Assembly: GCA_025210155.1 (NCBI GenBank)
Contig: JAOASE010000006.1
Location: forward strand, 170,939 to 234,938
DNA from: Alphaproteobacteria bacterium
Lineage (GTDB): Bacteria; Pseudomonadota; Alphaproteobacteria; Rs-D84; CASDRH01
DNA: 64,000 bases
Reading direction: 5' to 3'
Shown here: one piece after another, positions 6,001-12,000 of the stretch
How the letters are laid out: each line of letters starts with the position of its first letter
Numbering within the stretch: the stretch's first letter is position 1
Position numbers: made by a program

Positions 6001-9000
6001 GTTTTACCTGATCCTGTAGGACCTATTAACATTATATTAGATTTTTGGATTTCAACATCATTACTGCTTTTAATAAGAGATCTTATTCTTTTGTAATGAT
6101 TGTGAACTGCTACAGATAATATCTTTTTAGCGTATTCTTGACCTATAACATATTCATTAAGATGATTTAATATTTGCTTAGGTGTTAATATTTTAAATTC
6201 ATTAAGCTTCTTTTCTTCTTCTTCTTTTAAAATAACATCATTACATAAATGTATACAGTTGTCGCAAATAAAAACAGAAGGTCCTGCTATTAATTTTTGA
6301 ACTTCATTTTGAGATTTACCACAAAATGAGCAAAATTTAGAAATATCTTTCTCTTTATTAGTTTCCATAGTTATTTTCCTTCATAAAAACCTGTTGAATC
6401 TATCTTTTTTCTACAATCTCATCAATAAGACCAAATTTCTTAGCCTCTTCCGGAGACATATAATTATCTCTTTCACAAGCTTCAACCATTTCTTCATATT
6501 TTTTATTAGAATTTTCAGCTAAAATCCTTGTTAATTTTTCTTTAGTTTTTAACCCTTCTTTTACTTGAATTTCCATATCAGTTATTTGACCTTGGGCTCC
6601 ACCTAATGGTTGATGTATCATAACTCTTGAATTAGGTAAGGCTAATCTTTTACCCTTAGTTCCACCTGCTAATATAAAAGATCCCATAGAACAAGCTTGT
6701 CCCATACAAATTGTTCTTATATCGCATTTAATATATTTCATAGTGTCATATATTGCCATACCAGCTGTAACAGCTCCACCTGGAGAATTTATGTAAATAG
6801 AAATTTCCTTATTTGGATCTTCTGCTTCCAAAAAAAGAAGTTGGGCACAAATTAAAGAAGCCATATTATCTTCAAATTGACCTGTGATAAATATAATTCT
6901 TTCTCTTAATAGTCTTGAATAAATATCAAATGCTCTTTCTGAAACACCTGTTTTTTCAACAACCATAGGCACTAGACCAGACATATTTTCAATCATAATA
7001 ATAAAACTCCTTATATCTTCTTTCTAATGCTTGTATTATAACAAATTAAGCTAAAAATTACCAGTCTAAATATTTTTTTATGTTAAATTAATTTTTTATA
7101 TATTATAATGCTTTTCATTAACAATTAATTTATGTGAGGTTTGTATGAATTTAGAAGAAAGAATTGAAGATATTATAACTCCTACACTTGAAGATATGGG
7201 TTTTTCACCTGTAAGAATTTTAAAAACAGGAAAGGCTCTTCAAATAATGGTTGAAAAAGAAAATGGTGATGCTGTTTCTTTAGATGAATGTAGTAAAATA
7301 TCAAATGCTCTATCAGCGGTTTTAGATGTTGAAGATATTATTCAAGATAAATATATGTTGGAAATTAGCTCTGCAGGTATGGATAGACCTTTAGTAAAGT
7401 TAAAAGACTATAATAAATTTTTAGGTAATCTTGTTAAGGTTGAAGCTAAATTTCCTTTAGAAGATTTTGGTTATAAAAAATTTAAGGGATTTATTAAGTC
7501 TGTTAATGATAATTTAATTACATTTGAAAATTCATCAAATAATGATTTAGTTGAAATTGAATTAGATGATATAAATAAATGTAATCTAGAAATAACAGAT
7601 GACATGATAAAAAATCTTTTAAGAAAATAAAATTAAAAAGAAGCTTTTTAGCTTCTTTTTTTTAAATATTACTAGTCGAATCCAACTTAATTAATAGTTT
7701 TTACAAAACATGATTTATTATTAACCTTAAGACTTTCACATATTTTTTCAGCATCTGATAAATTGTTAGAATATATTTGAGATCTGTATATAGGATTATT
7801 ATTATCTCCTCCAACTTCTATCATGTTTTTATAATTATATTTATTAGATATAATAAAATCAGTTTCTTTAAAATAATTTTCAGCTCTTACTTGTTCTGAG
7901 AAAGCTCCTATTTGAACTTTATATTTATATTCTGTAGGAGTAACTTTTACTTCATACACCTTATCATTTCTATTTATTTTTGAATTAGAAATAGGAGATT
8001 TGTTTTGAATATTGTTAGTTTTAGCTGTAGCACTTTTATAAAATCTAAATTTAGATCCATTATCTTCTTTATTTTTATTTGGCATTTCAACAAATGAATT
8101 TAATGGTTTAGGTTTAGATATATCTGTTGGTTGTGGCTTGTTTTTTTGATTTTTCCAACCTGTATAAGTCATGTTAGTTGTTTTATTTAGTTTTTCAAAG
8201 CCATAATCTAATAAATTAACCATCTCTTTATCTCTTTTTGAAGCTGAATTAAAGCCTATTAGAATACCTAATATCCTTTGTCCCTTATCATTCTTAGCAG
8301 AAGCTATTAAATTGTATCCTGAGGCAGCTGTATATCCTGTTTTAAAGCCATCAGCACCTTTGTACATATTTAATATGTTATTATGTGTATAAATAGTTCT
8401 ATCTTTATATTTAAAAGATCTTTGATTAAAATAATGGTAATAGTGAGGAAAATGTCTTTTAATAGCCATAGCTAATAGAGCCATATCTTTAGCAGTAGTA
8501 ACCTGGTTATTATTATTTAAACCCGAAGAATTCTTAAAAATAGTATCATCCATACCTATTTCATTAGCAACTCTAGTCATTATTTCAGCAAAATCTCTTT
8601 CTTCACCTGATATATTTTCAGATAGTACCATTGCACAATCATTAGCAGATTTAATTGTTAATGCTTCTATACAAGTTTTAACAGATATTTTATCCCCTGC
8701 TAATATTCCTAATTTGGAAGCTGGTTGATTTGCAGCAGATCTAGAAATTATTAATTTTTGGTCCAATTTTAAAATACCCTGGTCTAACGCCTCAAATGTT
8801 ATATATAATGTCATTAGTTTAGTTAATGATGCTGGATATATTTTTTCTTCAGGATTATATGATTGAAGAACTATTCCTGAATCCATATCTAATATAAGAG
8901 AACTTTTATACTCCCTTGAAAACGAAATATTTGAAGCTAGCATAAATATAGATGTTAAAAGTAGTAGTTTTTTCTTGAACATTATTTACCTCTTTATTTA

Positions 9001-12000
9001 TATATAAATATATAATTATTATATCTCGTTGAATAGTGTAATTATTACATTTTTTAACAAAGTTATCAACATATTTATTTTTTGTATGTTGTTGATTCTT
9101 TTCATATTGAGTCTATTTTAAACATTTATATACGAGTCTTTTTTGTATTGTTCGATTCTTGGTTGTGTTTTGTTGATAGTTTATGAGTTTTATAACATTT
9201 ATATATTTATCAACATTTTATCAACAGCTTTTAAATGTAATATTTTTACTAATTTATTAGAGGGCTTTTTAACCTTGTATTAATTATATTATTTTGTTAT
9301 AATTTGTAAAGAAGAGAGAGGTTTTTTTATGAAGGAAAGTATTTTAAAAGCAGTTGCGCAACCTCCTAAATTATTTGGGGCGCCGTATTTACCGGCTTTT
9401 ATTAATTTACTAATTCATATGTTTCTTATTTTACTTCAAGCTTTTAGATTAAAAGGTGATACTATAATGTATATTATTTTAAGTTTAGGTATTACACATG
9501 GTTTAATAGTTTTATTTGGTAAGAGAGAGCCTCATATGTCTAATATTATTTTGAGTTATTTGAAAACTCCAAGTGGAAGTAATAATATTTTGAAAGAAAA
9601 AGGTGATAAGTTTATACCTTAATATGTGGTGATTAAATGGAATTTGCAGTTATTGATAAATTTATATTAACTGATATTGCTCCTATAAATTATATTTTTG
9701 GAGCTTTAGGTGTTTTGGGATTGGCTATTTTAGCTATTTTTTCGCTTTTTAAAATAAAGGGATCTTTTTTAAGAAGAGGGTTTGATACTAAATTAGCTGA
9801 ATTTATACCCTTTTCTGAAATATTATCTGATGGAAAAACTGTAGAGTGTTCTAATAAAACTTTAGTTAGGGTATTTAAAATGGAAGGTGTTTCATCATTC
9901 TTTTATAAGAAAAATTTAAAAAATAATTTATTTGAAGCTAAGCAAAATTGGTTAGATTCTTTCGACAATAAAGATATTTCCTGTCGAATCATAACAATTA
10001 GAGAAAAACAGAAAAGAAATGTTAATTCTAAATTTGAAAATAGTATTTTACAAAAAATTAATGATATTTGGTCTAAAAATATAGAAGATATTTATATAAA
10101 CACACATTATGTAGTGGTTAGTTACGAAGGATCTTCTTTAGAGAAATTAGATGAAATTTGTTACTCTTTTAAGGCTTATTTAGATAATTTTGGAATGAAA
10201 GAATTATCTATAACTGATTTTCCAGAAGATAATCCTTTAACTCCTTTTATTAAAGTTTTAAACCCTGTTTCTAAACCTAATATAGATATGAAAGGTGTTT
10301 CTGATGATATAGCTGATGCTATAACTTCTGAAGAAGTTTTCTTTTCAAATGAAGGTAATATTAGATTTAGATATGGTACGGAAGAAAAATATTTAGCAGT
10401 TATTGGAATTAAAAACATTTCTAATGTTGCAGATGAAGATATGATTGATAAGATATTATCTCTAAATTTCGAATTAAATATATTAGATACATTTTCAGTT
10501 GTTTCTTCAGAAAAAGCTAAAAATCTTTTACTTCATCAAAAAAATGCAGTATCAAGTAATAGTTATTCTTATGATACAGGTGCTCAGTTTGATGAAGCTC
10601 TTTCTCAATTAGATGAATATGATGAAGAACATCAATCTTTATTTAAATTTTCTCAAACTTTTTCAGTTTATGCTTCTACTGAAGAGGAATTAAATGAAAA
10701 TGTTTTTGAAATAGTTAAAATTCTTAGATCTTATGGAGTTGTTCCTGTAAGAGAAGGTGTTATTGCACAAGCATCTTGGTTTTTAAATTTTCCAAGTTAT
10801 GATATAGCTCCTAGAGTTTATAATGTTATGTCTCGCCCTATTTCTTGTTTGATTGATTTTGAGAAACAACCTAGCGGGTTTGATAGATCAGATTGGGGAG
10901 ATGGATCTATAACAAACTTTTTAACGGCTCAAGGGACTAGTTATCAATTTCAATTTCATGTTTCTCCTAATGATGGAGCTGTTGGTCATACAGTTACTAT
11001 AGGACCTACTGGTCAAGGTAAGACAACTTTATATGCATTTTTAGCATCTCAAGCTATGAAGAATAATAAATTAAGAACTTTCTTTTTTGATAGATATAGA
11101 GGTGTAGAAATTTTTTCTAACGCTATAAATGGAGATTATATAAATTTTAATTTAGGTTCTAAGTTTTTAAATAAGGTGGATCAAAAAAGTAAAGGAGATG
11201 ATGTTCTTACTAATACTCTTTTTAGTAAAGAAGTAGCTTTAAATCCTTTTAAAATAAAGGATACTCCAGAAAATAGATCTTTCTTAAAAGTTTGGCTAAG
11301 AGAATTAGCTTTAGCTACTGATTCTAAATCAGAAGAAGAAATTGCACGAGCTATAACAACAAATTTTGATTATTTAGAATATGAAGATAGAAATCTTAAA
11401 AATCTTTATAATTCTTGTTTTTCAGCTAATGGCTATATGAAAAAAGAGTTGAAAAGATGGGTTGAAGATAATGAATATGGTGAGGTATTTAATGCAGAAA
11501 ATGATTCTATGAGTTTAAATTCTAAATGGACTGCTTTTGATTTTACTTATATTTTAGATGATGAAGTTTTAGCTCCAGCTGTAGTTAGTTATGTTATGAA
11601 TAGAATTCAGAATGTAACAGCTAGAACAGGAGACCCTTCTTTAATTATAATTGATGAAACAGCTCCATTACTTGCTAATAGTTTATTTAGGAAGAATTTT
11701 GCAATAGGTTTGCAGGAAGGTAGAAAGAAGAGACAAGTTTATTTAGCAGCTTTTCAACAACCATCTGTTATAGATAAATTAGGTATGGGTGAGGTTATTA
11801 GAGGGCAAGCTCAAACAGAAATATTCTTTAGAAATCCTATGGCAACAGAAGTTGATTATAAAAATTGGAAATTAACACCTAAAGAATTTGCATTTATCCA
11901 GGGTAAAATATACAAGGATCTTCCTTATGCAATTTTATTGAGAAAACCGTCTATTAATGAGTCTGTTATTTTAAATGTAGATTTATCATTTTTAGGAAAT

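Follow-up and report, generated by a model that had tools for sequence, protein, structure and literature searches.

The non-coding spacer at positions 8983–9328 of the window (the whole 64-kb stretch of DNA that was analysed), which the ORF map and gene identities place between a divergent dacA-like PBP gene and virB3, is probably the chromosomal oriC of this ∼1-Mb, 29% G+C alphaproteobacterial MAG, and the virB3 promoter probably fires outward from within it. The observations behind this reading are the sites themselves, their conservation in five genomes, a switch in strand composition, nearby marker genes and an altered DnaA reading head. As an element the candidate origin is of an ordinary kind; what is unusual is its location and the DnaA that goes with it.

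The 346 bp of the spacer hold three exact copies of the 9-mer consensus TTATNAACA, three boxes with one mismatch and one with two (Table 1), the most conserved feature being tandem pair B. The initial annotation had placed TTATCAACA on the plus strand at 9063 and, 11 bp apart, at 9207 and 9218, TGTTGAT at 9090 and 9171, four GANTC sites at 9094, 9109, 9134 and 9154, and TTGTAT-17-TATAAT and TTAA-N7-TTAA at 9275–9303 and 9269–9283, respectively. All of these coordinates were confirmed, with 9171–9179 reading CTATCAACA on the minus strand, and the one-mismatch boxes TTTTTAACA (9051) and TTTTAAACA (9116) are additional to that list. Box pair A overlaps the −35 element of a putative leftward dacA promoter. 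In the related genome L081, a convergent ATCAACA followed by TGTTGAT matches the arrangement around the box at 9090–9098. The virB3 promoter candidate has an extended −10 element (TGnTATAAT) and is missing from a stricter promoter scan because its −35 element matches at only three of six positions.

Table 1. Features of the candidate origin spacer, its flanking genes and the dnaA region (positions in the window).
Feature	Position	Strand	Remarks
D-Ala-D-Ala carboxypeptidase (dacA-like), SPOR-type C-terminus	7687–8982	−	NCBIfam matches
virB3-upstream spacer, candidate oriC	8983–9328	.	346 bp, 19% G+C; ORF map, box density, skew change point
AT-richest, least stable stretch of the spacer	8983–9030	.	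Also holds dacA leader and promoter
Putative dacA promoter, TTGATA-17-AATAAT	9069–9041	−	Promoter scan match
Box pair A, TTTTTAACA and TTATCAACA	9051–9059, 9063–9071	+	Starts 12 bp apart
Degenerate box GAATCAACA	9090–9098	−	Two mismatches; includes TGTTGAT; overlaps GATTC at 9094
Four GANTC sites	9094–9158	.	GATTC 9094, GAGTC 9109, GAGTC 9134, GATTC 9154
Box TTTTAAACA	9116–9124	+	One mismatch
Box CTATCAACA	9171–9179	−	One mismatch; opposite strand
Tandem box pair B, TTATCAACA-tt-TTATCAACA	9207–9226	+	Starts 11 bp apart
TTAA-N7-TTAA, then T not C	9269–9283	+	Probably chance
virB3–virB4 promoter candidate, TTGTAT-17 bp-TGtTATAAT	9275–9303	+	Extended −10 at 9295–9303
virB3, virB4	9329–9622, 9637–12111	+	NCBIfam and Pfam matches
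dnaA, highly divergent initiator	45289–46638	−	R399K, P423T, D433N, T435S relative to E. coli
Second GANTC cluster, upstream of dnaA	46871–46951	.	Four GATTC 11 bp apart, fifth at 46947

The 40-mer at 8983–9022 (ΔG −34.8) is the second least stable in the 64 kb, and the stretch 8983–9030 could be an unwinding element. This role is uncertain because the nearest boxes point away from the stretch: the least stable DNA lies on their 5′ side, whereas the canonical arrangement places it on the 3′ side of a box. Downstream of the tandem pair, NTN triplets occur in runs that might have represented DnaA-trios, but these runs are indistinguishable from AT-rich background and are inconsistent in L081. 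The IHF-like and TTAA-N7-TTAA matches seem to be due to chance or to arise secondarily from the boxes.

Five copies of ATCAACA within 170 bp form the strongest 7-mer cluster of the window (Poisson probability 8 × 10−8). Some 7-mer clusters just as extremely in 6.7% of 64-kb sequences simulated with an order-3 Markov model, so that the cluster in one genome alone is only suggestive. Across the window TTRTNAACA occurs at background frequency (18 matches versus ∼19 expected from base composition), and within the window it is clustered at this spacer only. The spacer is also the densest cluster in the window for the canonical TTATNCACA at up to one mismatch, and no better box cluster was found elsewhere in the 74 kb examined. 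Its earlier description as the region densest in recognizable sites holds for box-like 9-mers, in which it exceeds every other spacer of the window; its GANTC count is matched by the dnaA-upstream spacer, and only by that one, and TTAA-N7-TTAA is not enriched (17 observed in the window versus 11.5 simulated).

The virB3-upstream spacers of five related genomes were compared: this genome (WIN), L081, L089/L001, L002 and L091. A blind count of 9-mers with one wildcard ranks TTATNAACA first, with 16 exact copies distributed over all five species, twice the best shuffled pattern (mean 5 and maximum 8 in 100 shuffles). A same-strand pair of boxes exactly 11 bp apart is present in every one of the five spacers, as are single opposite-strand boxes, and in all four relatives minus-strand boxes lie upstream of the tandem pair, as at 9171–9179 here. 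The wildcard scan identifies position 5 as the free position of TTATNAACA (T8, C5, A2, G1). The conservation profile matches the DnaA box TTATNCACA apart from an A at position 6, and since this position is A, not C, in all 16 exact sites across the five genomes, the boxes represent a variant rather than the canonical DnaA box. The virB3 promoter candidates of the relatives (TTGCCT, TTGTCT or TTGATT, a spacing of 16–17 bp and TATAAT) are found at the same relative place. The other neighbour of the spacer is dacA in this genome and L081 and a gene of 227–230 aa in L089, L091 and L002.

Inside the spacer of this genome the G/C skew at third codon positions (GC3 skew) changes sign, being negative on the left and positive on the right as expected of an origin. 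On the plus strand it is −0.23 to −0.63 in all nine minus-strand genes left of 8982 and −0.05 or higher in each of the 47 genes right of the spacer that encode 100 aa or more. The dacA-like gene is the last with left-type skew (−0.23), and virB3 (16 G and no C at third positions) and virB4 (+0.49) are the first with right-type skew. A change-point model of GC3 with a gene-strand term has its optimum at 9000–9300 with an lnL gain of ∼185, every position outside this interval losing 3.2 lnL or more. No gene-strand effect remains at four-fold sites (−0.22 and −0.10 on the left, +0.48 and +0.47 on the right) and the optimum falls at 9000–9250. Relatives that lack the box cluster have uniform skew across virB3–virB4, indicating that these genes do not fake a switch. 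The magnitude is asymmetric (−0.16 left and +0.47 right of the spacer), and the switch could also be an old rearrangement boundary, given that only 19 kb of the 74 kb over which skew was tested lie on the left side.

In L091 (two independent assemblies) an equally rich box cluster is surrounded by strongly uniform skew on both sides (TA4 −0.5 to −0.7), with a virB4 GC3 skew of −0.11 versus about +0.5 in this genome, L001, L002, L081 and L089; in that genome, then, the cluster does not mark an origin. In L089 the skew shifts only weakly, by about +0.14. The array moves with virB3–virB4 through the inversion of a 3.1-kb block and persists even away from the skew switch. The check that the initial annotation set for itself, motifs scattered at background frequency and a skew minimum elsewhere with a better box cluster, comes out in its favour: skew over 74 kb maps the switch to the spacer, and the motif scan of the window finds the 9-mer clustered nowhere else. 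Its alternative suggestion of an oriC-like DnaA-box cluster is now the favoured reading, in view of the switch and of the 74 kb holding no better cluster.

At least four GANTC sites within 70 bp occur at two places in the window, this spacer and the region upstream of dnaA, and any such cluster appeared in only seven of 200 simulations. None of the four related spacers (L081, L089, L002 and L091) contains a GANTC site, and no CcrM gene was found in the window. Control of the T4SS genes by methylation, as proposed in the earlier reading of this region, is thus unproven: the cluster is unusual and is mirrored at the dnaA promoter, but is missing from the relatives. The proposed control by CtrA was not borne out, as the TTAA-N7-TTAA at 9269 belongs to an unenriched class, is followed by T instead of C and is not matched at the same place in the relatives, L081 and L089 lacking the motif. 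What survives of the idea of cell-cycle control is that DnaA at the boxes might affect the virB3 promoter, the tandem pair lying 5–6 bp from the −35 element in three relatives (L089, L002 and L091).

The origin-linked genes rsmG–parAB, mnmG, mnmE and dnaA–dnaN all lie within 40 kb of the spacer, rsmG–parA–parB at 8–11 kb on its left and mnmG, mnmE and dnaN–dnaA at 16, 20 and 35 kb on its right. No parS consensus was found within the 74 kb. Right of the spacer, genes on the presumed lagging strand outnumber the others 2:1, and dnaA–dnaN would be head-on to replication. The DnaA of this genome differs from that of E. coli in four of the six base-contacting residues listed in PMC2533591. Asp433, described as highly conserved (PMC5043019, PMC8235120), is present in 209 of about 225 DnaAs parsed and is replaced by Asn here. 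Lys occupies both 423 and 433 in the closest DnaA, which is 43% identical and comes from the sequencing run that also yielded the sister locus L081. The dnaA promoter itself is without a TTATNAACA box.

The spacer resembles bacterial oriC (E. coli oriC, B. subtilis incC; PMC8287927) in being AT-rich non-coding DNA in which both strands carry 9-bp boxes. Two of these boxes form a tandem with a gap of 2 bp, the arrangement of the basal unwinding system, in which no more than 3 bp separate tandem DnaA boxes (PMC8287927). Its location at a strand-composition switch with rsmG, parAB, mnmG, mnmE and dnaA nearby is a further likeness. It departs from bacterial oriC in the A instead of C at position 6, in having no identifiable DnaA-trios or unwinding site, in not adjoining dnaA and in the T4SS promoter that takes up the DNA following the tandem pair. 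Boxes that allow A at position 6 are known from Mollicutes, with the DnaA-box consensus TT(A/T)TC(C/A)ACA and, in A. laidlawii, TT(T/A)T(C/T)(C/A)ACA; the 9-mers TTATCAACA and TTATTAACA thus count as DnaA boxes in other reduced genomes that are AT-rich (PMC3322544). Unlike in Mollicutes, the A is fixed here rather than an alternative to C, the host is an alphaproteobacterium and the change in the box accompanies the loss of the conserved DnaA residues D433 and P423. With the canonical box TTWTNCACA the variant shares a length of 9 bp, a single free position (position 5) and use as a single site on either strand.

The Caulobacter crescentus Cori, the model for origins of alphaproteobacteria, comprises DnaA boxes, GANTC sites and an outward-firing strong promoter, and GANTC is also found at the dnaA promoter of that organism. 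The spacer shows the same combination, including GANTC at the dnaA promoter, but has neither a hemE neighbour nor a convincing CtrA array (a single TTAA-N7-TTAA at chance level), and its GANTC cluster is not conserved in relatives.

In E. coli, datA titrates DnaA, and datA and the dnaA and mioC promoters are non-origin clusters or DnaA-controlled promoters. The boxes studied here could similarly bind DnaA without the array being an origin, forming a promoter-linked cluster that couples virB3–virB4 and the divergent neighbour to the DnaA level and that might titrate DnaA, as datA and the B. subtilis clusters away from the origin do. This is rather unlikely, even though the cluster travels with virB3 through the block inversion, has its tandem pair against the −35 element in three relatives and is kept in L091 inside a replichore without a skew switch. 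In B. subtilis, DnaA is documented to bind stably to intergenic box clusters outside the origin (PMC2533591), and these clusters, like the E. coli examples, resemble the spacer in having several intergenic boxes directly upstream of a promoter. They differ from it in that the spacer coincides exactly with a strand-composition switch, which a purely promoter-linked role leaves unexplained in this genome; nor is there an alternative origin-capable box cluster in the 74 kb around the switch. In addition, the virB11 promoter in the same window is without such boxes, so that they are not a regulatory site of T4SS genes in general.

Sites of the OmpR/PhoB/CtrA family typically consist of direct repeats with an 11-bp spacing beside a −35 element, and the 9-mers might be half-sites of another protein (a winged-helix response regulator such as CtrA or an OmpR/PhoB-type protein, which would recognize direct repeats one helical turn apart, or a dedicated virB regulator), with a coincidental likeness to the DnaA box. 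The repeats share their 11-bp period with the CtrA box TTAA-N7-TTAAC, the tandem pairs of L002 and L091 reading as a perfect CtrA box and that of L089 being one base off. Both half-sites nevertheless deviate from the consensus in this genome and L081 (TCAA, TGAA), and conserved bases (TTAT at the start, A at the end) extend across the would-be CtrA N7 spacer, even in isolated opposite-strand single boxes, which fits a 9-bp monomer site. The sole free position is moreover that which is free in DnaA boxes, and a regulator of this kind is improbable; the window also contains no ctrA or OmpR-type gene, a weak point for a window that spans just some 6% of the genome. That the cluster is a functionless accident of AT-rich, low-complexity sequence between genes would be compatible with the clusters seen in simulated sequences and with promoter-like and TTAA-N7-TTAA matches near background frequency. 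This is very improbable, being effectively refuted by conservation, since the same 9-mer and tandem arrangement, at twice the best of 100 shuffles, recur in five genomes with VirB4 proteins that are only 53–66% identical.

In the preferred reading of the spacer as oriC, the binding of DnaA, the opening of the DNA and any influence on transcription are inferences. The divergent DnaA would bind an array of six to seven 9-mers with the consensus TTATNAACA, a DnaA box with A for C at position 6. The two same-strand pairs, spaced by 11–12 bp, would place adjacent DnaA molecules on the same helical face and so allow their oligomerization, with the opposite-strand boxes sitting between the two same-strand pairs. 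Adjacent AT-rich DNA would open and replication would run in both directions, which may have imprinted the G/C skew switch exactly at the spacer. The virB3–virB4 promoter would fire from the right edge of the array and the putative dacA promoter would overlap its left edge; because both sit at the edges, DnaA occupancy may tune the two promoters.

More speculatively, DnaA (through loss of D433 and P423) and its box (from TTATNCACA to TTATNAACA) might have changed together in a small clade of host-associated alphaproteobacteria, the array having become welded to the virB3–virB4 promoter such that DnaA ties expression of the T4SS ATPase operon to initiation. If correct, the oriC assignment would place the origin of an uncultured ∼1-Mb alphaproteobacterium that a search for canonical boxes beside dnaA or hemE would miss, and would help in deriving growth rates from metagenomic read depth and in rotating genomes to a standard start. 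The changed DnaA reading head together with the changed box would provide a natural test case for how an initiator reads DNA, and the conserved tight link to the virB3–virB4 promoter hints at secretion-system expression coupled to the replication cycle.

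The spacer between a dacA-like gene and virB3 is probably an oriC-type array of DnaA boxes of the variant form TTATNAACA, out of which the virB3-virB4 promoter reads. The initial annotation had described DnaA-box-like 9-mers, inverted ATCAACA heptamers, GANTC sites and a CtrA-like TTAA-N7-TTAA in this region; all of these motifs were located at the coordinates it had assigned, and two one-mismatch boxes can be added (see table). Of all 40-mers in the window, the second least stable falls within the spacer. The virB3 promoter is missing from a stricter promoter scan because its -35 element is weak, despite an extended -10. 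Promoter-like matches are slightly above expectation in the spacer (six versus 4.1 by shuffle), and a search against Rfam found no RNA families there. One leftward promoter match (TTTACA-16-TATAAT, 11/12, 9283-9310 on the minus strand) lies face to face with the virB3 promoter, overlapping it, and would read into the box array.

Features of the spacer, its surroundings and the compared loci
Feature	Position	Strand	Remark
rsmG	42-605		
dacA-like penicillin-binding protein gene, SPOR-type tail	7687-8982	minus	left neighbour of spacer
Spacer	8983-9328		346 bp, 19% G+C
Box TTTTTAACA	9051		one mismatch; 12 bp ahead of 9063 box; added here
Box TTTTAAACA	9116		one mismatch; added here
virB3 promoter	-10 at 9295-9303		TTGTAT-17-TATAAT; weak -35; extended -10 TGtTATAAT
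virB3	9329-9622		right of spacer
virB4	9637-12111		right of spacer
mnmG	25729-27618		
mnmE	29630-30943		
dnaA	45289-46638	minus	dnaN comes next
dnaA-upstream GANTC array	46871-46951		GATTC at 46871, 46882, 46893, 46904 (11 bp apart); fifth at 46947
Tandem pair starts, window	-122/-111		
Tandem pair starts, L081	-103/-92		third box at -80
Tandem pair starts, L089	-66/-55		
Tandem pair starts, L002	-69/-58		
Tandem pair starts, L091	-76/-65		
Compared interval, window	8983-12123		
Compared interval, L089	9495-12472		
Compared interval, L091	9375-12472		

Judged from the window alone, the evidence for a cluster beyond chance is only suggestive. The best 7-mer cluster of the window is ATCAACA, with five copies in 170 bp (Poisson 8e-8), and 6.7% of order-3 Markov simulations give a 7-mer cluster equally extreme. 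The pattern TTRTNAACA occurs 18 times across the window, with about 19 expected from base composition, and is thus not a dispersed repeat but is concentrated in the spacer. It is the comparison across genomes that is decisive for a cluster beyond chance. The comparison set comprised 80 virB4 loci of species-representative genomes and several metagenome contigs; the VirB4 relatives, most of them in MAGs from gut, rumen or termites, reach at most 66% identity. A long spacer with a divergent gene upstream of virB3 was found only in the low-G+C nearest relatives, namely the sister locus L081 (VirB4 66% identity) and the loci L001/L089, L002 and L091 (53-54%). Blind enumeration of every 9-mer with one wildcard in the five spacers, with 100 shuffles as the null, ranked TTATNAACA at the top, with 16 exact copies spread over all five spacers (shuffles: mean 5, maximum 8). 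Each of the five also carries a same-strand pair of boxes exactly 11 bp apart directly upstream of the virB3 promoter and, farther upstream than this tandem pair, at least one box on the opposite strand. DNA alignment of the spacers (13-19% G+C) is unreliable except in the tandem pair and promoter block. The observation made initially is confirmed.

The 9-mer has the same information profile as the DnaA box TTWTNCACA, from which it differs in having A for C at position 6: eight positions are conserved, position 5 is free (T8, C5, A2, G1 over the exact sites) and position 3 accepts G. The profile of a CtrA site is unlike it, as the conserved TTAT and final A would sit in the unconstrained N7. 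The tandem pair does read as CtrA TTAA-N7-TTAAC in L002 and L091, whereas both halves are off in the window and L081 (TCAA, TGAA). A box variant with A at position 6 is already known: the published Mollicutes consensus is TT(A/T)TC(C/A)ACA (PMC3322544), and in phage T5 and a Cyanothece replicon TTATCAACA and TTATTAACA are regarded as variant DnaA boxes (bioRxiv 10.1101/866236; PMC4674748).

The other proposed signals fared less well. The CtrA-like TTAA-N7-TTAA at 9269 does not support CtrA control: the motif shows no enrichment (17 observed versus 11.5 expected), the terminal C is missing, and the relatives have no site in the corresponding position. Methylation control through the GANTC sites is only a possibility. 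Clusters of at least four GANTC within 70 bp occur at two sites in the window, the spacer and the region upstream of dnaA, and are statistically unusual, any such cluster appearing in 7/200 simulations; the four related spacers contain zero GANTC sites, and the cluster, although intriguing, is specific to this genome and does not belong to what is conserved in the element. The GATTC sites upstream of dnaA make up a repeated (C/A)GAATC(A/G) array, and in the sister organism (L095) the homologous region ahead of dnaA retains one CCGATTCGG, plus a shared ATCGA..TTAAATCC.CTAG block. Three GANTC within 13 bp (28162-28174) are also present in a 127-bp divergent spacer (28124-28250), adjoining a small gene whose product has a match (E 6e-18, short of the threshold) to the holin-associated N-acetylmuramidase family. 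An IHF site was rejected, its sole consensus match (9208) being a by-product of the box TATCAACA followed by TTTTA.

The gene neighbourhood marks origin-proximal territory, with dnaA, mnmG, mnmE and rsmG in the window and parA and parB just past its left edge. With a Logan contig from this genome, the sequence was extended 9,959 bp to the left of the window (about 74 kb in total), and strand skew was measured per gene as G versus C at third codon positions, read on the plus strand. Left of the spacer this GC3 skew is -0.23 to -0.63 in nine of nine minus-strand genes; right of it each of the 47 genes that are 100 aa or longer, on either strand, has a value of -0.05 or higher, the minus-strand genes spanning -0.05 to +0.64, and virB3 has 16 G and no C at its third positions. 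In a logistic change-point model including a gene-strand term, introducing a switch raises the log-likelihood by about 185 units, and the optimum with virB3 included lies at 9000-9300, within the spacer, all other positions being at least 3.2 units worse. At four-fold sites no gene-strand effect remains (-0.22 and -0.10 on the left, +0.48 and +0.47 on the right) and the optimum is 9000-9250. A change from negative to positive skew has the direction expected at an origin and not at a terminus. Skew is uniform through virB3-virB4 in relatives without the box cluster, indicating that these genes produce no false switch.

Three other positions were rejected. Raw cumulative G-C is lowest at about 0.7 kb, at the rsmG/TPR junction, which is a gene-orientation artefact, because third-position and four-fold skew remain left-type to 8982. 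The clpP-rimP spacer (6997-7144) is 6 lnL worse as a switch point and has a single degenerate box. The spacer upstream of dnaA (46639-46925), with one AAATCCACA and zero TTATNAACA, shows no skew switch and is therefore not the origin. No comparable box cluster was found in any other spacer of the 74 kb, even using the canonical consensus at one mismatch, and no parS at up to three mismatches. An oriC-like DnaA-box cluster, which the initial annotation had offered as an alternative to cell-cycle control of the T4SS genes, is thus favoured by the location of the switch and the lack of a rival cluster.

The 3.1-kb block of spacer, virB3 and virB4 is inverted in the window and L081 relative to L089, L091 and L002, and the flanking dacA and 227-237 aa genes hold their relative orientation. 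In L089 the gene upstream of the spacer, 227 aa long, is homologous (33% identity, E 3e-36) to the 237-aa gene that follows virB4 in the window; the latter has no NCBIfam match. The rsmG-parAB/TPR block is likewise inverted between the window and L089, so that repeated small inversions are seen in the origin-proximal region. T4SS genes are scattered in the window: a solitary virB11 (19060-20025), at a distance of 7 kb from virB3-virB4, has a separate TTGAAA-16-TATAAT promoter. A shared T4SS regulator was rejected, since TTATNAACA boxes are absent there. At the right end of the window, a tRNA 3' end (T-arm to CCA; 63325-63349, minus strand), where no complete tRNA gene is called, looks like an attachment-site remnant bordering an integrated element; the bases upstream of it contain a CAT anticodon loop, read by eye, and it adjoins very AT-rich DNA and then an ORF (63596 onward) running past the window end.

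A rival explanation kept alive by the following observations is a virB3-linked DnaA-box cluster that serves as the origin only in certain genomes, or is no more than a site of regulation or titration. In L091 (two independent assemblies) the cluster is equally rich, yet four-fold T/A skew is -0.5 to -0.7 and strongly uniform on both sides, which places the cluster away from the origin in that genome; virB4 GC3 skew is -0.11 in L091 versus about +0.5 in the window, L001, L002, L081 and L089. The skew shift in L089 is weak. Four-fold G/C skew from -9959 to 64000 (with L085) is asymmetric in this genome, about -0.16 to the left of the spacer, where 19 kb are covered, and +0.47 to the right; genes right of the spacer lie 2:1 on the G-poor, presumed lagging strand, and dnaA-dnaN is directed toward the putative origin. 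This asymmetry and strand bias suggest that the left flank switched replication direction fairly recently. The tandem pair is 5-6 bp from the -35 in L089, L002 and L091, resembling a regulator site, and the cluster remains with virB3 across the block inversion.

A DnaA-bound promoter cluster that is not an origin is unlikely, the skew switch favouring an origin. Recognition of the repeats by a different regulator is more doubtful still, with the DnaA-box profile pointing to DnaA, and chance is highly improbable for an array found in every one of the five spacers.

By sequence the DnaA of this genome diverges extremely: when 1.84 billion representatives were searched exhaustively with HMMER, the best match had 43% identity and all others were at or below 39%. 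The reported base-specific contact residues of DnaA are R399, P423, D433, H434, T435 and H439 (PMC2533591), and in alignment with E. coli DnaA four of these six differ (R399K, P423T, D433N and T435S). D433 has been called highly conserved (PMC5043019) and a reader of box position 7 (PMC8235120); among about 225 parsable DnaAs, residue 433 is D in 209, N in nine and K in five. The 43%-identity DnaA (P0230/L095) shares its sequencing run with L081 and carries K at positions 423 and 433, and the canonical reading head is therefore absent from both organisms with the most alike spacers. This alteration in both could reflect a shifted box preference, and we infer that replacing Asp, a hydrogen-bond acceptor, with the donors Asn or Lys beside a C-to-A change would be chemically sensible. 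No box cluster was found beside dnaA for two unrelated DnaA genes with N433 (P0155 and P0178). VirB4 is 66% identical between the same two organisms versus 43% for DnaA, indicating that DnaA is evolving much faster. The kind of element is already known; what is unusual is its site beside T4SS genes and not dnaA or hemE, its conservation together with the T4SS genes and the changed DnaA reading head.
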